IMG/VR virus record: IMGVR_UViG_3300021255_000031
Length of the DNA: 64,000 nucleotides
From: a virus
Lineage: Duplodnaviria; Heunggongvirae; Uroviricota; Caudoviricetes
Direction: 5' to 3' (one strand)
Each line of letters starts with the position of its first letter. The stretch's first letter is position 1. The notes beneath the pieces are model-generated. The model ran no database searches. It worked only from the letters and a program-made list of their open reading frames with translations, and was not told the origin of the DNA. The translations under genes were made by a program, and so were the position numbers. Positions 7,069 through 59,877 of the stretch are shown piece by piece.

Positions 7069-8193
7069 TTACCTCACTTTGATTCTATTTTTATATAAAT
7101 ATTCAAATATTTCTTTCCCTTTATCATAAGGTGAATCTTTCTTTTCTAATAAATTATCATAATCCCATATATAAGAAAATGAAGCATGTCCTTTATAAGC
7201 TTTACAAATTTTTTCTAAAGATTGACGATATTTCTTTGCTTCTGGCGAGCGCCAATCATCGTACTCCTTATCAAAAGCAATAGTAATTTCATTGACACCA
7301 AGAATATCTGTCAAAAGACTTATATGATATTTATTTGTATGGCTGCCGCAAACCGCGACTGCATTTGACATTTCTCCATAAAATCCGTCATCCAAAAGCA
7401 CCGACTTCTCTCCCTCTACCAGCACTACACTTCTTCGCGTTTGTATTCCTTTTTTATGCTGGTAAGCGCCATATAACTGAAACATTTCGCTAAATTTATA
7501 ATTGATATTACCCACCGTAATAGGATGATATTTTCCAAAATCTGCAATGCGCCAACTTTCAAATTCGCGTTCGCGTACTCCTATTAAACGGCCATTAATA
7601 TCACGCTGTGGTATAACAACCGCCGCGTCAGGGATAGAATAAGATATCTCAAACTTATCCATCACTTGCGGCAAAATACCATCAGCTAGCCAAGCCGGAT
7701 GATAATAATGGATAAAACATTGTAAAACATTTTCATTATATGAAGGTAATTCAGGAAGCTGCGCGGTAAATTTATATTTATTTACATCAATATCTGTCTT
7801 TTTTGTCCGCAATTCTCGTGAAATGTTAATATGCTTTAAGCATCGTTTAACATATTCAACGGCATCGGCATATGTAATCGGATAATAATTCAACTCCATA
7901 TACTTTCTATATAGAGTAAATATACTCATAGCTTCATTACATTCAGTATAACATCTAAATATTTTATTATTTTGATACCAATAAAGTTTCATGCTTTCGG
8001 CTACATTTATTGGATTATGACATATTGTAGGACAAATTAAATATCCTTTATTTTCATAAACCTGTATTTGCGTTACGCCTAAACTCTCTAAAAAGTTTTT
8101 TACATCTTCCAGCGTAATCGATTCTATAATTTCTTTTGAGCCCGCTTCTAACAATTCTAATTCTTCGTCTTGAAATTGTAATGTATCAAGCAC
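7069..8193 (-). CDS. DNA primase (zinc-binding domain + TOPRIM), probable GTG start
   Basis: CPTICH...CYTEC, VVLVEGEKS, AFDKE; SD-like GGAG before GTG at 8193, overlapping the helicase stop. Confidence 0.8.
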   Translation of the reverse strand: MLDTLQFQDEELELLEAGSKEIIESITLEDVKNFLESLGVTQIQVYENKGYLICPTICHNPINVAESMKLYWYQNNKIFRCYTECNEAMSIFTLYRKYMELNYYPITYADAVEYVKRCLKHINISRELRTKKTDIDVNKYKFTAQLPELPSYNENVLQCFIHYYHPAWLADGILPQVMDKFEISYSIPDAAVVIPQRDINGRLIGVREREFESWRIADFGKYHPITVGNINYKFSEMFQLYGAYQHKKGIQTRRSVVLVEGEKSVLLDDGFYGEMSNAVAVCGSHTNKYHISLLTDILGVNEITIAFDKEYDDWRSPEAKKYRQSLEKICKAYKGHASFSYIWDYDNLLEKKDSPYDKGKEIFEYLYKNRIKVR

Positions 8194-35797: not shown

Positions 35798-37198
35798 TCA
35801 GGTGTCCTCAACTTCCTGGGCCTCCTCAATATCCGGAGCAACAGCTTCATCCTTAGCGATACCCTCTAGTACCTTAAAAGAGAAGTTCTTATGCTTATAA
35901 ACCGCGAAGTTAGGACGGTTAAGGATACGCACGACTACGCCCTCGCGCACATGAGTTTTACCGATAGGATCAGGGCCATCGAAGTACTGTTCTACCTTAC
36001 GAAGAACATACTCGCCAGCATTTACATTCTCAGGAATTACAAAGGTTTCAAATTCCATAACAGTATGAACGCCCATCTGCTCGCAGCGCTCCTTGATTTG
36101 CGCAGGAGAGTACTCTACCACATCACCATCGGCATTTACCATAGTCATACGATAGACATATACTTCGCAGCAAGGAGGAACATAATAGTCAGTCTCGCGC
36201 CACTCGGCTAAAGTATAATCACCAAGATCTTCCTTATCGACAAAAATTTCTTCATCGTAGTGGCCATTCTGTGCGCAGCCATAGGAAAACACAGTGATCT
36301 TACCATACTGCTTAGAGAACTCGGGGTCCTTTACCTTAGAATTCTGAACCTCAGACATGATGGGCGCGCCGCCAGGGCCCTGGAAGCCTACGATTTCGTA
36401 ATACACTACCTCGCCCTTACGAAGCTTGCCCTCAAATTTAGCCGCCATTGCGTGACGGAAATCATCGGACTCGTAAAAGCCGCCTTGACGAGTACCATCC
36501 AAAACTACACGACGAGTTCCAGTGATATATCCATATTCCTTGTACTCCTTACCAGGGCGATGGAACAGCGTATCGAGCCAAGACCGCTTGGTATGAACTA
36601 GAGGCAGATATCCGGTGCGTCCAGAGGTGCCGTGCATCTTTAGAGTTAGCTGGACGATATCGCCAACTTTAAACTTGTCGAGATTATAAGCAAGCTGCTC
36701 GGTATCTACGTGCTCGTAGAAGGTAGGCGCGATGTTGACCTTTGCCTTGCGAGGTGTCTTCGCGCCATGATACTGCACGGATGCATTGCTATGAGGAATA
36801 TACTTGCGGCAAATTTCCTCACCATTCAGAACATCAATGCGGTCGCCCACTTTAAGATCAGAGATAGTGCAGAAGTCAGCCAGTGAAGTAATAGGCATAA
36901 ACAAACCATCGGACTTCTCGCCACGAAGCTTGATAGCCTTGATGTTGCGCTTATCGGGGTCAAGATAACCACCGCAGTAGTTACCGTTCTCATCTTTACG
37001 GCGCACCAGGTCGTTTACCGCGCAATAGCGCTCAGAAAGTTGTAAGTCAACAGGAAAATAAATTCCCATTGTACCGAGTTGAGTATCAAGACTAACGATA
37101 GTATCGTTTCCGAAGAAAGTAGCCACCTGAAGCCTATCCGCGTTGGAGTGCGGGCGCAGATGCTCCACCTTTACTACATAACCACAGTGATCAGACAT
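35798..37198 (-). CDS. ATP-dependent RNA ligase (Rnl2/DRB0094-like) with N-terminal tRNA-binding-type OB domain
   Basis: HSNADRL, IKLRGEKSDG, motif I KMHG, YYEIVG, REGVVVR, YKHKN; own promoter at 37232-37260. Confidence 0.85.
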   Translation of the reverse strand: MSDHCGYVVKVEHLRPHSNADRLQVATFFGNDTIVSLDTQLGTMGIYFPVDLQLSERYCAVNDLVRRKDENGNYCGGYLDPDKRNIKAIKLRGEKSDGLFMPITSLADFCTISDLKVGDRIDVLNGEEICRKYIPHSNASVQYHGAKTPRKAKVNIAPTFYEHVDTEQLAYNLDKFKVGDIVQLTLKMHGTSGRTGYLPLVHTKRSWLDTLFHRPGKEYKEYGYITGTRRVVLDGTRQGGFYESDDFRHAMAAKFEGKLRKGEVVYYEIVGFQGPGGAPIMSEVQNSKVKDPEFSKQYGKITVFSYGCAQNGHYDEEIFVDKEDLGDYTLAEWRETDYYVPPCCEVYVYRMTMVNADGDVVEYSPAQIKERCEQMGVHTVMEFETFVIPENVNAGEYVLRKVEQYFDGPDPIGKTHVREGVVVRILNRPNFAVYKHKNFSFKVLEGIAKDEAVAPDIEEAQEVEDT

Positions 37199-43840: not shown

Positions 43841-45364
43841 TTAGCAAATGTTCTTGTAACGGTCAGAATCTAACTTCTGGAACATCAAGTCTTGTGCCGT
43901 GAGTCCCTTTAAAATCTGTTCGTATAGTACAGGAGAACAACCGCTTACGAAGGTTACGCCAGTCTTAGAGTCTTCCAGGAAAGTATTATTGCGGGCATTG
44001 ACATCCCAATACACAAGGTTGGGAAAATCATACCAGCCGCCGCACCTAGCTTCCCACTTCTGACGAATAGAAGACATAAAGTCCGTCTTTTGATAACCAT
44101 AACGCCCAGTTGCCGCATCAACTTCCATATCGCTTACGATGATAAGAGTCTTAGGCATATCTTCGGGATCAACATTATTTTGTATTGCGGTATTTAGCAC
44201 TAGGTCAAATACGCTTTGTAGATTAGTATTCTCACAAAGATTGGTACTTACGATACGTGCTACCTTATCACAAAAATCCACACCCTTAGTCTCAACTAGA
44301 CGAGCAGTATGGCTGAAGGAGATGTAATGATTTGCGAAAGGCCCCTTAGCACGCTCTGCGGTATAGAGCGCAAGAGATACTGCAACATCAATGGGCTGTA
44401 CAGAGGTGCCGGAGCCCCAACACATACTTCCTGAGGTATCGCAAACAACCATAGCGTTGAGGGTAGCACCTTTGAAGTAATCAGTAAGATTGTCCCAATA
44501 CTTATTTACCATAAGGCGCTCAGTATCATTAAGTGCAGGCTCATTATAACGGTTACCCATACACTTAATTGCGGCCGCCACTACATCATAAGGATATAGA
44601 GTACCAGCATTGACCTTAGTAGTCTTATCCTGTGCAAAAGCCTTGTACTTTTCGGCAATCAGGCCCTTACTCTTAAACACATTACGATAGATAAGACCAG
44701 CGCGAGAAGGAAGCTTAGAGAAGTCAATTTCTTCCCAACGGTTCTGAGACATAAGACGCTCTACTACCTTAATACGCTCACGCAGCATAGAGAGCATCTT
44801 ACGATACTCACGAGGAGTAAGCTCAAGAGCAGCCATAACGCGGCGAGCATTATGACGAGTAGTAGCACTAGATGTATTCTCGGAAGGCATCCACTTCGCG
44901 CAAAGAGATACCGATGCCCGAGGATCATCATTATAAATAGCCATATCGCGGGTTAGCTGATGACGAATGAGTGCCATTACTTCACGCTCAACAGGAGTAT
45001 CGAAGAGTACAAACAGGTCGTCCCAACGGATAAAGTTGCCATCTACCCACTCACGCAGATTCTGGCGGGCGGCTTCAGGATAGTTATTACCAAGCCAACG
45101 CAGACATACACGGAAGAAACGACGCTCACCTTGTCCTTCCATAATATCTCTGAGGTACGTCAGGCACTTCATCGCATATCGAGGGTTCTCCATATAGGCT
45201 TCCTTAAAGAGAAGCACGCAATCACTCTCGCTACGAGTGCGGTAAGCTCCACCAAGAGCAAACAGGTCATAAAGTTTAGACATGGATGACTTCTTGGCAA
45301 TAGCACCATTTTCGGTACACTTAAAATTATTCTGGGACTTCATCGCGTTCATAAAAGTATTCAT
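43841..45364 (-). CDS. DUF2828-like TROVE/vWA protein (Ro60/Rsr-like architecture)
   Basis: TENGA, YLRDIMEGQGER, LCAKWMP; vWA MIDAS DTSGSM, IVSDME, VYWDV; own promoter at 45429-45457. Confidence 0.75.
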   Translation of the reverse strand: MNTFMNAMKSQNNFKCTENGAIAKKSSMSKLYDLFALGGAYRTRSESDCVLLFKEAYMENPRYAMKCLTYLRDIMEGQGERRFFRVCLRWLGNNYPEAARQNLREWVDGNFIRWDDLFVLFDTPVEREVMALIRHQLTRDMAIYNDDPRASVSLCAKWMPSENTSSATTRHNARRVMAALELTPREYRKMLSMLRERIKVVERLMSQNRWEEIDFSKLPSRAGLIYRNVFKSKGLIAEKYKAFAQDKTTKVNAGTLYPYDVVAAAIKCMGNRYNEPALNDTERLMVNKYWDNLTDYFKGATLNAMVVCDTSGSMCWGSGTSVQPIDVAVSLALYTAERAKGPFANHYISFSHTARLVETKGVDFCDKVARIVSTNLCENTNLQSVFDLVLNTAIQNNVDPEDMPKTLIIVSDMEVDAATGRYGYQKTDFMSSIRQKWEARCGGWYDFPNLVYWDVNARNNTFLEDSKTGVTFVSGCSPVLYEQILKGLTAQDLMFQKLDSDRYKNIC

Positions 45365-45446
45365 AATTTTTTCTCTCCTTCTCATCTTAGTCTTTTGTCA
45401 AGACCGCAGGTTTTTTCTTTATGTATTTATTATAACATAATTTTGA

Positions 45447-47165: not shown

Positions 47166-47783
47166 TCATATATCTTCTGGCTGCATAGGAACTGGAAGCT
47201 GACCGATTTCATTCCGATAATTACGAATATCGGCAATAACAGTTTCAATATTAACAGGATAACAATCGTGAGCATCCATTTCTACGTGATAACATTTATC
47301 TTTCATATCTAAAAATTTATCTTTAGTGTGCGTATGGCCCGCAAGCGCAAAAAGCTTACTATGAATTTTTTCATCATCATAATTACCAACTTTGGTTGGA
47401 TAATGTGAAAGATAAAAACTCCACTTACCATTTTTAATTATAGTAGCATAAGAGCAATGATAATCACCGACACGTATAATATGAGGACAATTTTCTTGGA
47501 TTAGTGCGATTTTATTTATAGTGTCGTGATTACCGAAAATCCAGATTTGAATACCGTTAAGTCGTTGAAGATATGGAATCGCGCCCGCTACATCATTCAT
47601 AGCCATATCACCCAAATTATATACCGTATCATCTGGTTTAACTACACTATTCCAGCGCTCAACAATTGCCTCGCACATTTCTTCTGTAGAGGTAAAACCG
47701 CGAGGTTCGTAAAGGAAAGGCTGAGAATGCATTAGATGTAAGTCGCTAGTTAGCCATATCTCACTCATTCTCTTATCTCCCAT
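47166..47783 (-). CDS. Calcineurin-like phosphoesterase
   Basis: TSDLH, LGD, GNHD, SHYP, GHTH. Confidence 0.85.
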   Translation of the reverse strand: MGDKRMSEIWLTSDLHLMHSQPFLYEPRGFTSTEEMCEAIVERWNSVVKPDDTVYNLGDMAMNDVAGAIPYLQRLNGIQIWIFGNHDTINKIALIQENCPHIIRVGDYHCSYATIIKNGKWSFYLSHYPTKVGNYDDEKIHSKLFALAGHTHTKDKFLDMKDKCYHVEMDAHDCYPVNIETVIADIRNYRNEIGQLPVPMQPEDI

Positions 47784-48253
47784 ATTTGAATAGCACGCAT
47801 ATCTTCATTTAAATGAGGTTCTCTGTATTGGTGATACATTTGTTCTAGCACAGTTTCAGGTACTCGCGCACGCCCTTCACGCTTAGCGTTCCGCCGCGCG
47901 CACTCCTCGATAGGAATATTGAAATATACATAGATAATATTATAATCAGAAAAAACAGTATCAATGGCGCGAGTAAGCTTTATACGAGACTTTTTATTTA
48001 AATGAGTAGCGTCAGCAATTACATCAACATTTGTAGATAAAAATGCGGCGATAACAGAAAAAAAGATATGAAATACATCTTTCTCATGTGAAAAGTATTC
48101 TTCTTGCGGCTCCAATAATTCAAAACGAATAGAGTCGCGTGAAACATAATGTATCTTTTGTTCATCGCTGTGCTTTTTGATAAAGTTCATTGCCCAGGTA
48201 GTTTTACCTGAAGCAGGAATACCACAAAGCATATAAAGAATAGGCTTTCGCAT
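47765..48253 (-). CDS. Polynucleotide kinase-like P-loop kinase (AAA_33)
   Basis: GIPASGKTT, SRDSIR, ADATHL, RNAKR...VPE. Confidence 0.8.
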   Translation of the reverse strand: MRKPILYMLCGIPASGKTTWAMNFIKKHSDEQKIHYVSRDSIRFELLEPQEEYFSHEKDVFHIFFSVIAAFLSTNVDVIADATHLNKKSRIKLTRAIDTVFSDYNIIYVYFNIPIEECARRNAKREGRARVPETVLEQMYHQYREPHLNEDMRAIQIWEIRE

Positions 48254-49231: not shown

Positions 49232-49421
49232 AGCTCCCGATAGGACTTGAACCTACAACCTGCGCATTACTGGAGCCGAGTGTGAGTTATGAACTCACAT
49301 ATCTTCGCCTAATTGATTCGTCAATCAATTAGTTTATCATACGGTCTTTTCCCTGTGATTCGGGTGTTTTACTTTAAACTAACTCGACAAGTGCGCTGCT
49401 CTACCATTGAGCTACAAGAGC
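49232..49421 (-). tRNA. tRNA-Thr(UGU) interrupted between nt 34 and 35 by a 118-nt tRNA-like insert (49271-49388)
   Basis: Removing the insert gives a 72-nt cloverleaf with GCGCA-CT TGT AA-TGCGC. Confidence 0.88.
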
Positions 49422-49519: not shown

Positions 49520-49648
49520 ATTGTGGGTAAGGATTTGCACCTTACATGATTTCCTTCTGAGTAAAATCTATGACCTCATAGCCAAGCCAAGTCTTCCTTG
49601 ATGCACGGGTTCAAACCGTCTAGCGTCTACCTATTCCGCCACCACAAT
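49520..49648 (-). ncRNA. tRNA-like RNA: Leu/Ser-type D arm, UGA loop, variable region of about 60 nt
   Basis: TTGTGG/CCACAA acceptor, GGCGGAATAGGTAGACGC, ACGG-TTTGAAC-CCGT, TAAGG-TGCAAAT-CCTTA. Confidence 0.65.
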
Positions 49649-51871: not shown

Positions 51872-52019
51872 TGTGCCCGGCGAGGCTCGAACTCGCGACC
51901 CCTTGATTATGGTGGAGTATCAAGGTATTGCACCTTGTCCTCTATTAGACGTCTCTAATAGTATGCTCTTTACATTACTACCCCAAAGTCAAGTGCTCTA
52001 CCAACTGAGCTACGGGCAC
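51872..52019 (-). tRNA. tRNA-Lys(UUU) interrupted between nt 35 and 36 by a 75-nt tRNA-like insert (51910-51984)
   Basis: Removing the insert gives a 73-nt cloverleaf with CTTGA-CT TTT AA-TCAAG. Confidence 0.9.
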
Positions 52020-52801: not shown

Positions 52802-52913
52802 TGGTGGAATGTGGGAGAATTGAACTCCATCCTTATGGATCGACATTTGCAATGCCTACGTTATCACCTTGCGGTTTACCTCGGTGGCTACCCTGATGCC
52901 ACTTTCACATCCC
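52802..52913 (-). ncRNA. 112-nt tRNA-like RNA with G3-U70/A73/CCA acceptor and extra internal domain
   Basis: GGGATGT/ACATTCC-A-CCA, GGAG-TTCAATT-CTCC, GGCA-TTGCAAA-TGTC. Confidence 0.7.
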
Positions 52914-52917
52914 ATAA

Positions 52918-52990
52918 CATGCACACTAGTGCTCAAACCAGAATCTTCTGATTAAGAGCCAGATGCATTAACCAATTGTGTTAAAAGCCC
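52918..52990 (-). pseudogene. Degenerate tRNA-Lys(CUU)
   Basis: Anticodon arm TCTGG-CTCTTAA-TCAGA is intact, but acceptor strands GGGCTTT/TGTGCAT do not pair. Confidence 0.6.
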
Positions 52991-53068: not shown

Positions 53069-53076
53069 TTGTATAA

Positions 53077-53186
53077 TGGTGCGGCGGGTCAGGATTTGCA
53101 CCTGCGAAGCCCACGGTTCTAGCTAGCATACCGACGTGGGCACCAAACTTACCGGTTGGCCCCTTTGTCTGCTTGGATACCACCGC
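53077..53186 (-). ncRNA. 110-nt tRNA-like RNA (GUA loop, oversized variable arm, CCA encoded)
   Basis: GCGGTGG/CCGCCGC-A-CCA, CCAA...CGGTAAG...TTGG, GCCCACG...CGTGGGC arm. Confidence 0.65.
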
Positions 53187-53225
53187 ATATTAACTTATTC
53201 TTCTACAATAAACCAAAATTTCGCT

Positions 53226-53786: not shown

Positions 53787-54825
53787 ATTAAATTCTATCT
53801 TCTATATCTTTACCAAAGGCTTCTTCAACTTGTTCTGGCGAAAAACCAAGTGCCACGGCGAATGACTTACAAAAACTATGAAGTGTACCAATAGTCATAT
53901 CTGGTGTAGTTCTGAAAGTCAAATCAACGTTATCATCAAATTCGTTATCATCGTTATAATAATTAAATTCTACAGTAATAGGTCTATTTATCTCCATGAT
54001 TCAGTCTCCTTATAAGGATTTTCCTTATCCCAAACAGCACAGTCTTTTACGATAAAATCATTCATTTGGAAAAACATATTCCAAGCAACTTCAAGGCAAT
54101 CGGTATGCCAAAGCTTAGTACGACCGGTTTTCTTATCACGAAAGCGAAGAACGCAACGAAGAATACCACCGCTTTTATCCTCAAACCAATCCATCTGAGT
54201 AGAAACCTGTTCTACAACAAAGCGCCCACGCCACAGATTATCGTCATAAATAGACTTGTTAATATCGCGGCAAAACTTATTAAGCCAACGCTGATGAGCG
54301 CGGCGATTATGAGATTTCATACTGTATTCCTTCATTTTCTTTCCCTCACTTTCTATAATAATTATAGCATAAATTTAGAAAGAAGTCAAATAATTAACGA
54401 ATAGAATTAATTTCAATTAACTTGCCACATTTATCACATTGGTAAATATATCGAATATTATATCGATGTACCGCCTGCTGAAAAATATAGTGTCCTCCGC
54501 ATCTTGTACAAATGCCATCATTATATACTATGTTACAGGACGATTCTTGTAAAAATACTACGCCTATAAAAAGTAATATAGCAATTAACACTGCTATAAA
54601 AAAAATTTTCCTATCTTTCATTATATTAGTCTTTACTCTCCTTAAACTTATAGAACGCACGATTAACAATATAAATCTCATGCCCGCATTCTGGACATTC
54701 GATATATTCTATCCAATCCCGCTGATTATCAGAAAATTTTATATCACTATCTTCAAAAGAGAATAAACAATCACAAAATTTACATGTCATACGATATTGC
54801 GCGTGCCCATGCTTAATAATTTTTA

Positions 54826-55260: not shown

Positions 55261-55589
55261 TATTATCCCTTTTTACTGATAAATTTCATTTCAATTTTGG
55301 TGCCATGAGGAATAATATAATTATTAAAATAATTATCTGGAAGAGAACAAATTATACTTGAGCCCTCTTTTTGGAAACAATCCTTATATTGTCCATTACC
55401 TTTCTCATCGAGTGTACGCATTAACCAATTATAAATGGAATCAATAAATTGACTTTTTGTCGCTGTGCTGCTTAGAGTTTCCTTATCCATATTATTTCCT
55501 CATTTCCTTTTTTCTAAAAAAATTATACCATAATTTTAGAGAAAAGTCAATTATAAAAATAAGATGGAAAAAATCCATCTTTTAAATAC

Positions 55590-55697
55590 TAGGCGTCTTA
55601 TTTATTGTCCTACCAATTGGACGATTCGCAAAAAGGATTGCAAAATGGGACTCGAACCCATAACCTATAAAGGCATAATTGTTGCTGAAAACGCCTA
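55590..55697 (-). ncRNA. CAGCAA-scaffold RNA, copy 5, with circularly permuted tRNA module
   Basis: TAGGCGT/ACGCCTA helix; T arm, then acceptor 3' strand TTTGCAA, linker, acceptor 5' strand TTGCGAA, then D arm. Confidence 0.8.
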
Positions 55698-55700
55698 TAA

Positions 55701-55817
55701 TGCTATCGAGTGGATTTGAACCACCACTGCGTAGATTTTGAAGGTCAATGTAAGTGATGACCTTACCGCGCTCTGGCTATTGACCGTCTACTGCCTCTGC
55801 CGTTGGGCTACGATAGC
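55701..55817 (-). tRNA. tRNA-Leu(CAA) with short variable loop, interrupted between nt 32 and 33 by a 44-nt acceptor/T-arm mini-tRNA (55742-55785)
   Basis: Removing the insert gives a 73-nt cloverleaf with GTAGA-CT CAA AA-TCTAC. Confidence 0.85.
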
Positions 55818-55828
55818 AAATTAAAAAC

Positions 55829-55945
55829 TAGACCCACTTATTACGCGCTCTACCATTAAGCTATTTGGGCTTAAAAGCCCAAAGATGGAATCGAACCATC
55901 ACATACGTGCCCCACATGCAAAAGAAATAATTGCTGACAGGTCTA
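55829..55945 (-). ncRNA. CAGCAA-scaffold RNA, copy 6, with circularly permuted tRNA module
   Basis: TAGACC/GGTCTA helix; GATGG-TTCGATT-CCATC, TTTGGGC-TTTTAA-GCCCAAA, GCTT-AATGGTA-GAGC. Confidence 0.8.
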
Positions 55946-55948
55946 AAA

Positions 55949-56036
55949 TCCTACTCCCACGACTTGAACGTGGACTAACCTTGTGAGGGTCTCCGGCTTA
56001 TAAGGCCGTGGCATGTACCAATTATGCTTGAGTAGG
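55949..56036 (-). tRNA. tRNA with UAU anticodon (Ile, AUA-reading) and long variable arm
   Basis: CCTACTC/GAGTAGG acceptor, CGGC-CT TAT AA-GCCG, variable arm of about 19 nt. Confidence 0.8.
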
Positions 56037-56042
56037 AAAATC

Positions 56043-56161
56043 AAGACGGCGAAATGAATGCTACCGCTACACCAAACATAAGTGCCCATCTATGCTGCGG
56101 GATTCGAACCCGCCCCTTTATTATACTGCATAAATTTTCAAAATAATTGCTGAACCGTCTT
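56043..56161 (-). ncRNA. CAGCAA-scaffold RNA, copy 7, with circularly permuted tRNA module
   Basis: AAGACGG/CCGTCTT helix; GCGGG-TTCGAAT-CCCGC, AGCATAG...TTATGTT, TGGTGTAGCGGTAGCAT. Confidence 0.75.
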
Positions 56162-56849: not shown

Positions 56850-56948
56850 AAATTTACCTCATTCTTATAAAATTAATGCTGGGCAGGGCGACACTCCCGC
56901 ATCTCCTAACAATGGGCGATAGCTGCCTGTTCTATCCTCCAACTTGAC

Positions 56949-57089
56949 CGCCCGGTGAGGGGCTCGAACCCCCGACACTGCGGTTAATACAGAGGCGAGA
57001 ATTGAACTCGCAACGTGGGCGTCCCTCACATGATTACCAAATCATCTCTCTGTCACAGCCGCATGCTCTACCGACTGAGCTAACCGGGC
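56949..57089 (-). tRNA. tRNA-Asn(GUU) interrupted in the anticodon (nt 35/36) by a 68-nt tRNA-like insert (56987-57054)
   Basis: Removing the insert gives a 73-nt cloverleaf with TGCGG-CT GTT AA-CCGCA. Confidence 0.88.
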
Positions 57090-57099
57090 AAATTCGGCA

Positions 57100-57345
57100 T
57101 GCTATCTCTGAGCTGACGAGCGCCGCACCCGTATAGTCTTACCTATAAGTAGCTATCCTAAATTAAGACCTGATAGCAAGGTAATTATAACCGCTCATAA
57201 CTGTTTACGTTACTTCGTTGGCGGCCGCAACGATAGGCATCTCACCCAGTCCAAGGCGGTTTTTACTCATGCTGGAGATTGTATTAAAGAAAATGTCAAC
57301 TAGTATAAGCCAGCATCCCGCTGAACTACATTTTCTTTTACAAGG
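57100..57345 (-). ncRNA. Unidentified structured RNA candidate (about 245 nt)
   Basis: No ORF; several perfect helices (ATGCTGG/CCAGCAT, CGTTG/CAACG, GCTATC/GATAGC, TATAG/CTATA). Confidence 0.45.
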
Positions 57346-57372
57346 CTCGTGCTCATTAAACACAAGCAGAAA

Positions 57373-57843: not shown

Positions 57844-57904
57844 TAGACGGCATAAGAAATTTTAATCAGCCAAAATTTTCTACAAGTATTGCTGCTACCG
57901 TCTA
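57844..57904 (-). ncRNA. CAGCAA-scaffold RNA, copy 9
   Basis: TAGACGG/CCGTCTA helix, CAGCAA, AT-rich hairpin with CTGAT loop. Confidence 0.65.
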
Positions 57905-58538
57905 TTCGGTTTTATTAACCACAGACCGAAAGCTGCGCTTTCTCTTGTTATTCCACCCACGCATGAAAGTATGTTGGGAAATTGGGCTTTCCGACGCATT
58001 TGCGCCTTTGCCAATATTCAGGTGTCTTACCCAAATACAAACCCACCAAAGGCAATGTGGCCTACACTGTGTGAGAGGTGCGATTGAACCGCATCGCTTT
58101 ACCAATTTTTAGCGCTATTTGGTAAGGAATCGGGCCTTTTCCTTCCATCCTCTTTTTCAGCCAAGGTTATTGTTCCACTATCAACTACTTATCTGGTTCT
58201 CTTACCATAGCCTCTAGATTACCATTTCAAAGAATGGTTATATACCGCAAACGATATGCGGATGCACCTTTAAGTTTAAGGTGGCGTGCCCCACCGCCTA
58301 CTCTCTTATCTGTTATAGGCTCAGTATGCGCTCTTGGGTGGCCGCCCTCAAGCGAAGCTAGACTCTAAGTGCATCAGGGTTTTGGCTCTACGCTCCACGC
58401 CACCCGCTGGGACTCGAACCCAGGCAGTGCCTCTACCTTTTCGCTTTATCTTTTCTACAGCCCCGTGTTTATACTGCTTTCTGCATCGTAGAACTGACCA
58501 GCAGTGACGGTTTTTACAGAAGAATACCGACAACTAAA

Positions 58539-58615: not shown

Positions 58616-58686
58616 TGGAGACTATCAGAATCGAACTGATGACAAATGCTCGCAAAGCATCTATTTTACCGCTAAACTAAATCCCC
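58616..58686 (-). tRNA. tRNA-Ala(UGC)
   Basis: G3-U70, A73, TT TGC GA loop. Confidence 0.9.
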
Positions 58687-59801: not shown

Positions 59802-59877
59802 AATATAGTCTCCTTGCGGTTCCCTACCCGCAATTTGTATTTCGTTGATTGGGTTCCTTTCCCCTTTCAACATAATA

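Follow-up and report, generated by a model that had tools for sequence, protein, structure and literature searches.

Group I introns of bacterial tRNAs and the endonuclease-removed introns of archaeal and eukaryotic tRNAs interrupt the anticodon loop, and their removal restores the tRNA. To our knowledge, tRNA introns leave in one of two ways: they self-splice, or a dedicated splicing endonuclease cuts them out. A tRNA shape can also signal two precise cuts, one by RNase P and one by RNase Z, as it does in two-piece tmRNA, permuted tRNA genes and mascRNA.

The closest described systems are the tRNA introns of Lak megaphages, which have been called "enigmatic" (Devoto et al. 2019, PMC6784885, Fig. 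4, Table S6). These introns are identical across samples and present or absent between relatives, and the one in a Thr UGU gene was noted as a possible tRNA; the passages that describe them propose no mechanism (PMC6784885). In a literature search that took in few subscription journals, the Lak paper was the only one on nested or tRNA-like introns, and the search returned no paper on flanks joined after release by RNase P and RNase Z and no flush, CCA-ended or alanine-marked phage tRNA introns. A 2026 review of jumbo phages has no passage on tRNA introns.

Here we describe a 75-nt insert in a phage tRNA-Lys gene. Like the Lak introns, it is a short, non-ribozyme insert in the anticodon loop of a phage tRNA, and taking it out restores the tRNA; however, where the Lak introns that we examined have a leader hairpin followed by an inner tRNA body without CCA (PMC6784885), the Lys insert spans positions 1 to 76 flush, with CCA at its end and an acceptor of alanine type. 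It differs from group I and archaeal or eukaryotic tRNA introns in having no ribozyme core, Rfam match, bulge-helix-bulge or associated EndA, and the inserts of its class occupy sites that vary from 32/33 to 36/37. With the tRNA-like domain of tmRNA (RF00023, RF04321) it shares G3.U70, A73, CCA, a T arm and the lack of an anticodon, but it has a D stem, sits inside another tRNA and is without a tag-coding domain, the D-loop motif or a significant Rfam score. In contrast to the systems released by RNase P and RNase Z, it is the flanks here, and not the inner RNA, that would be joined into the useful product.

A tRNA-shaped insert divides the anticodon of a phage tRNA-Lys gene

The window, by which we mean the whole 64,000-nt stretch of DNA that was analyzed, comes from an uncultured phage of about 167 kb. 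The genome is large and A+T-rich, an array of tRNA genes lies on the minus strand at about 49-59.5 kb of the window, and the nearest record is a complete virus genome of 167,250 bp (G001/G002, of which G002 is referred to below as the sister genome). The RNA ligase encoded in the window has its closest relatives in Bacillus phages, at about 45% identity, and this suggests that the host belongs to the Bacillota. The interrupted gene is laid out as follows:

54361-54389, minus strand: promoter-like site upstream of the gene block with the Lys gene, 11/12 to consensus (a consensus match only; the count of such sites is not above shuffles)
51872-52019, minus strand: interrupted tRNA-Lys(UUU) gene (RF00005, 57 bits); without the insert, a 73-nt cloverleaf that ARAGORN calls tRNA-Lys(ttt)
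51985-52019, minus strand: 5' exon, tRNA positions 1-35, its last base U35 being position -1 of the insert
51910-51984, minus strand: 75-nt tRNA-shaped insert, G1 to A76 of the inner cloverleaf, identical in L001, L100, L101 and L103
51978-51984, minus strand: insert acceptor, 5' strand, with G3 at 51982
51963-51975, minus strand: insert D arm, a 4-bp stem (pair probabilities 0.82-0.94) and a 5-nt loop without GG
51942-51961, minus strand: 8-bp hairpin with a GACG loop, replacing the anticodon arm; five of five counted pairs compensatory in homologs
51921-51937, minus strand: insert T arm, a 5-bp stem and a non-canonical UGCAAUA loop
51910-51920, minus strand: insert acceptor, 3' strand, with U70 at 51916, A73 at 51913 and CCA at 51910-51912
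51872-51909, minus strand: 3' exon, tRNA positions 36-73

Rfam scores 51872-52019 as a single tRNA with a long insertion, while plain ARAGORN misses the gene and ARAGORN -i calls it Gln. Taking 75 nt out in any register leaves a 7-nt loop, and four canonical anticodons can be obtained in this way: Met CAU, Ile UAU, Lys UUU and Gln UUG. Only the register between anticodon bases 35 and 36 makes the insert flush from base 1 to CCA (1-76), and the anticodon is then Lys(UUU). We rejected Gln, Ile and Met as the host tRNA: the register allows each of them, but the insert would then not be flush with the inner tRNA. Since the exons are intact, the window has no other intact Lys(UUU) gene beside its intact Met(CAU), Ile(UAU) and Gln(UUG) genes, and AAA makes up 5.0% of codons, we favor the reading that the insert is a spliced intron. 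The exons in L101 and L103 differ by a compensatory change in the acceptor, and the exon stems are perfect. The best candidate for an empty allele is not close (58/73 identical), and blastn of the interrupted gene against 50,697 cultured phage records matched the 5' exon alone.

The acceptor of the insert has six base pairs (G1-C72, G2-C71, G3.U70, G4-C69, U5-A68 and A6-U67), followed by a G7/A66 mismatch. Its top four pairs, A73 and CCA are those of what we take to be the bacterial tRNA-Ala(UGC) consensus; compared with that tRNA, the insert is without an anticodon loop and has the 7:66 mismatch and non-canonical D and T loops. A separate, intact tRNA-Ala gene lies at 58616-58686 of the window. 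Folding of the insert gave z = -3.19, with 2 of 200 shuffles equally good, and the combination of at least six acceptor pairs, CCA, G3.U70 and A73 turned up in 5 of 1,000,000 shuffles. Four other contigs (L001/L100, L101 and L103) have the insert letter for letter, which rules out an assembly artefact. When the precursor was folded with ViennaRNA, a slipped form, in which the CCA pairs with U35-G1-G2, came out 4.3 kcal/mol better than the tRNA-like acceptor; the homologs gave 0.4-1.0 for the tRNA-like stem.

Part of this anatomy had been set out in a preliminary description, which did not mention the alternative registers or the slipped fold, and the Rfam match, the fold and the call on the spliced form confirm its central claim of a 75-nt insert in tRNA-Lys(UUU) with an alanine-type end and no anticodon. 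The acceptor with G3-U70, A73 and CCA can likewise be read directly in the insert, as can the fully paired 8-bp helix, capped by GACG, that stands where an anticodon arm would be.

Two neighbors of the gene were also recorded. A degenerate tRNA-Lys(CUU) at 52915-52990 (minus strand) has a broken acceptor and intact D and anticodon arms, and an intact version occurs in L101. A PD-(D/E)XK endonuclease gene (PF11645; 52299-52715, minus strand), 280 nt upstream, adjoins tRNA-Tyr, and the matching region of the sister genome is without it. We rejected a tie between this gene and the insert, because it is missing in the matching regions of L325 and L101, which bear the insert.

The insert belongs to a class defined by shape

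Three further tRNAs of the window array, for Thr, Leu and Asn, hold end-flush tRNA-shaped inserts, none of them with alanine identity:

49271-49388, minus strand: 118-nt tRNA-shaped insert (C3-G70, U73, CCA) in tRNA-Thr(UGU), 49232-49421
55742-55785, minus strand: 44-nt top-half insert (U3-A70, U73, no CCA) in tRNA-Leu(CAA), 55701-55817
56987-57054, minus strand: 68-nt tRNA-shaped insert (C3-G70, U73, no CCA) in tRNA-Asn(GUU), 56949-57089

Alleles with and without an insert were seen for Asn, Gln, Leu and Thr. The Asn gene has an intact allele with the same arms in L012, and the Gln gene is intact in the window and interrupted in L001; because such intact alleles exist in relatives, the flush register is fixed for all four of these genes. 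Four compensatory pair changes separate the Leu insert from its version in L002/L325. The Gln insert of the sister phage is a 55-nt tRNA shape in tRNA-Gln(UUG) (L001 3450-3580, plus strand). At the same 34/35 site of Thr(UGU) where the window has its 118-nt CCA insert, L101 has another insert of 67 nt without CCA (7399-7537, minus strand).

To survey the class without bias toward any acceptor, we combined scans that left the insert unconstrained with the tRNA arrays of 19 phage records, filtered out tandem tRNA genes, and obtained 18 further or neighboring lineages. The 3:70 pair in these lineages was G-C, C-G, U-A or A-U, and G.U in 0 of 18 (upper 95% bound 15%). Insert ends fall at tRNA processing sites in 4/4 interrupted window genes and in about 24 lineages overall, and removal of the insert gives an exact 7-nt loop in every case. 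Three types of ends occur: 1-73 (all with U73), 1-76 with CCA, and 1-76 with other tails, the non-CCA three-base tails past the discriminator being GAU, AUU, AAG and CAA. In L043, L048, L053, L316, L317 and L319, such non-CCA tails go with a G1/A72 mismatch, and the rules known for RNase Z do not account for the 3' cut. We also found a second architecture, a leader hairpin followed by a CCA-less body, which matches the published Lak introns. In L021 (6110-6259, plus strand), a whole tRNA-Asn(GUU) with CCA is nested at 36/37 of a tRNA-Lys(UUU), possibly as a fresh capture. Given that acceptor identity varies freely and that a whole tRNA-Asn can serve as an insert, shape and not identity is the feature of the class, and with most class inserts lacking G3.U70, the best explanation for the tRNA shape is that it signals processing.

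The alanine-type end recurs in other phages

G3.U70 and A73 are the keys for alanyl-tRNA synthetase (AlaRS) and are common to tRNA-Ala and tmRNA (PMC3968760), as the preliminary description had stated for G3-U70. It had further proposed that the excised RNA could be alanylated but could not decode. This fits the insert, which has G3.U70, A73 and CCA and no anticodon loop, and we regard alanylation of the freed 75-mer as plausible from its sequence.

A scan that required an alanine-type end inside a tRNA, and to which members without that end were thus invisible, found five further phage lineages, with Lys(UUU) as host in L307/L314, L308, L311 and L312 and Ile(UAU) in L310. Pairs 1-4, A73 and CCA are identical in all six lineages, while identity in the cores is 43-68% and for the most part no higher than in shuffles. 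The window insert has a clear homolog in L310 (core identity 0.67, against 0.62 for the 99th percentile of shuffles), L308 is joined through L310 (core identity 0.68), and the remaining lineages are at shuffle level. When the three homologs are compared, both bases have changed in 10 of 20 pairs, a result equaled by 0 of 500 shuffles. The changed pairs include 5:68 and 6:67, one pair in the D stem and, in the central hairpin, each of the five pairs counted, and pairs 1-4 are constant; the D arm overall has one compensatory change and one half change. These compensatory changes show selection on the fold of the insert. They are no proof of selection on G3.U70, because the scan could return only members that keep it.

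Alanine-type ends occur in 9 of 431 intact phage tRNAs, and the enrichment among inserts rests on rough denominators. With rough population sizes of 40-90 lineages, at least five independent origins would have P of 0.001-0.04 and at least three P of 0.05-0.29; the count of independent origins is lowered by shared ancestry, since three of the six lineages go back to one ancestor. A covariance model built from the three homologs matched a free-standing, anticodon-less look-alike that resembles the insert in its fold and has C3-G70, a CGA tail and no CCA (L334 1501-1575, minus strand; E 1.2e-5); it also matched ordinary phage tRNA genes whose D and T loops are odd in a similar way. A 3:70-neutral pattern gave two chance matches, without tRNA context, in GTDB genomes, and a pattern of the T arm and acceptor retrieved mostly marine tmRNA-like ends from viral contigs and no nested homolog. 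We conclude that the alanine end marks a real, recurring subtype. It is most simply the legacy of a tRNA-Ala-like gene that was captured, with selection on charging weak or absent.

A predicted route of excision

We consider it probable, from sequence features, that the insert is an intron, that RNase P together with an RNase Z-type cut removes it and that an RNA ligase seals the gap. If the gene is expressed as a single precursor, the insert would fold as an inner tRNA, for which the 5' half of the host tRNA would be the leader and its 3' half the trailer. Host RNase P would cut before G1; RNase P cleavage leaves a 3'-OH on the upstream piece. An RNase Z-type cut directly after CCA would free the 3' half with a 5'-phosphate, so that the two host halves, held together by their own stems, would carry 3'-OH and 5'-phosphate ends and could be joined by an ATP-dependent RNA ligase into tRNA-Lys(UUU). 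The freed 75-mer would be a mature tRNA look-alike, probably a substrate for AlaRS and unable to decode. The phage genes that may bear on the sealing step are these:

35798-37198, minus strand: ATP-dependent RNA ligase, candidate sealing enzyme (phrog_968, E 2.9e-67; TIGR02306, DRB0094/Rnl5 type, 53.9 bits, under the 151 cut-off)
47166-47783, minus strand: metallophosphoesterase, candidate member of an end-healing pair
47765-48253, minus strand: polynucleotide-kinase-like gene, candidate partner in the pair

This route is favored because the insert ends coincide with processing sites throughout the window genes and the wider class, and because the main types of ends, one at 1-73 lacking CCA and the other at 1-76 including it, correspond to the cuts made by Bacillus subtilis RNase Z. 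That enzyme, assayed in vitro with Co2+, cuts CCA-less precursors mainly after the discriminator and cuts 80% of CCA precursors right after CCA (PMC7479834). The ligase step is favored because 6/6 genomes with alanine-type inserts, the window and five others, encode an ATP-dependent RNA ligase. On the other side, RNA ligases are common in large phages. CCA slows B. subtilis RNase Z 1520-fold in Mg2+ (PMC7479834), and the phage encodes no enzyme of the RNase Z family; both weaken the route, as do the predicted precursor fold of the window copy, which hides the inner acceptor, the non-CCA tails, which RNase Z rules leave unexplained, and an inner D loop without the GG of a normal elbow. The window ligase is a less than ideal candidate for sealing the loop of the Lys tRNA, because its nearest family, Rnl5, has been characterized with nicked duplexes as substrates, not with breaks in loops (PMC5397189).

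Alternative explanations

Two established modes of intron removal were rejected: inserts of 44-75 nt have no room for the core of a group I or group II intron and gave no Rfam ribozyme match, and archaeal-type splicing would call for a bulge-helix-bulge, which we did not see by inspection, and for EndA (PF01974), which none of five phage genomes has. A different nuclease could still do the cutting. It might be an unrecognized endonuclease of the phage with specificity for tRNA shape, or an anticodon nuclease of the host; a kinase and phosphoesterase would then heal the ends before ligation. The non-CCA tails and the inhibition of RNase Z by CCA do call for a different 3' cutter, kinase and phosphoesterase genes adjoin the array, and many nearby ORFs have no family; we nevertheless think this route unlikely, as the boundaries lie exactly at RNase P and RNase Z sites, the junctions have no bulge-helix-bulge by inspection, PF01974 is absent, and no enzyme has emerged as a candidate. 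Alternatively, the gene might never be spliced, in which case the lysine tRNA would have been inactivated by a selfish or captured tRNA-like unit, or the host halves would be discarded and the inner RNA kept as the sole product. The phage could use the tRNA-Lys of its host, a degenerate Lys(CUU) gene lies nearby, and the insert is identical in L101 and L103 where the neighboring region is only 78% identical, which fits recent spread. An unspliced gene is improbable in the face of perfect exon stems, compensatory variation in L101 and L103, the exact 7-nt loop restored in every case and a design common to four genes of one array.

A further pair of alternatives concerns the alanine end. Excision might proceed as we predict, with the alanine mark under selection and AlaRS charging the freed RNA for a purpose, which may be to cap the 3'-OH of the intron against rejoining or circularizing, to act as a decoy for EF-Tu or a nuclease, or to donate alanine outside the ribosome. 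The identity of the top four pairs, A73 and CCA across six lineages with such divergent cores points this way, as do the retention of G3.U70 in three homologs whose 5:68 and 6:67 pairs change compensatorily, the rarity of such ends among intact phage tRNAs, and the loss of the 7-nt anticodon loop in 6/6 inserts, as would be required of a safely charged RNA. Yet the search pattern itself required the alanine end, G3.U70 is absent from all 18 unbiased lineages, half of the six alanine-type lineages share an ancestor, P for at least three independent origins reaches only the range given above, and the look-alike in L334 has neither G3.U70 nor CCA. We therefore hold selection on the mark to be doubtful, and we have similar reservations about the joint proposal that nested-shape tRNA splicing by host trimming enzymes goes with a subtype that retains alanine identity, is charged by AlaRS and uses the alanine as a cap against re-ligation or as a decoy. 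The preliminary description had raised, beside a decoy role, mimicry of EF-Tu, SmpB or ribosome-rescue partners, in which the freed RNA would imitate the tRNA-like domain of tmRNA, bind SmpB and enter or block rescue. The 3' end of the insert is tmRNA-like, we read the mostly tmRNA-like matches of the T-loop and acceptor pattern as pointing the same way, and the last 33 nt have a weak match to permuted tmRNA in Rfam (7.9 bits against a gathering score of 47, E 4.4). In tmRNA, however, the D loop is stemless and SmpB occupies the place of the D and anticodon stems (PMC3968760), whereas the insert has conserved structure in both places, the D stem and the central hairpin, and its D region is without GG and CGAC. 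Similar T and D loops also occur in ordinary free-standing phage tRNA genes, the window and the sister genome have no mRNA-like tag domain or second piece, the sister genome has no tmRNA, and no SmpB was found in the six phage genomes with alanine-type inserts, a weak point given that the host has its own SmpB. The comparison does not support this proposal, and we rate mimicry of tmRNA as very improbable.

Other RNAs and genes around the array

Several other unusual RNAs lie in or near the array, all on the minus strand. At 52802-52905 of the window, 800 nt from the insert, is a free-standing tRNA-like gene with an 8-bp acceptor, a 4-bp T stem, G3.U70, A73, CCA and an oversized middle; it has a weak Rfam tmRNA match (E 1.1) and is a second alanine-marked non-canonical RNA. 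A CCA-ended tRNA-like gene at 53075-53189, 98% identical in L325, has two hairpins and no clear anticodon loop, and at 49520-49645, just downstream of the Pth2 gene, is a Leu-like tRNA shell in which about 70 nt replace the anticodon arm. Y-RNA-like units with a CAGCAA motif (two weak YrlA matches) occupy 55587-56160, and a gene for a DUF2828/DUF7788 RNA-binding protein occupies 43841-45385. A skipping-rope RNA at 56875-56946 scores above gathering, and cow-rumen-3 and cow-rumen-4 RNAs at 57224-57368 and 59815-59873 score below it. About 700 nt at 57850-58530 are G+C-richer and hairpin-rich, with no convincing ORF and no Rfam match, and may be a large non-coding RNA.

Discussion

Phage tRNA introns without an explained mechanism were known already; flush, CCA-ended and alanine-marked forms are new as far as our literature search, with few subscription journals, extended. 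Standard tools miss or mis-assign such genes, as ARAGORN did with the Lys gene. If our reading is true, tRNA introns would have a third route of removal, in which RNase P and RNase Z cut and a ligase joins, and this would explain the Lak introns that have been "enigmatic" since 2019. Should the alanine mark also be under selection, the intron, once cut out, would be a naturally charged RNA that serves a purpose other than decoding.
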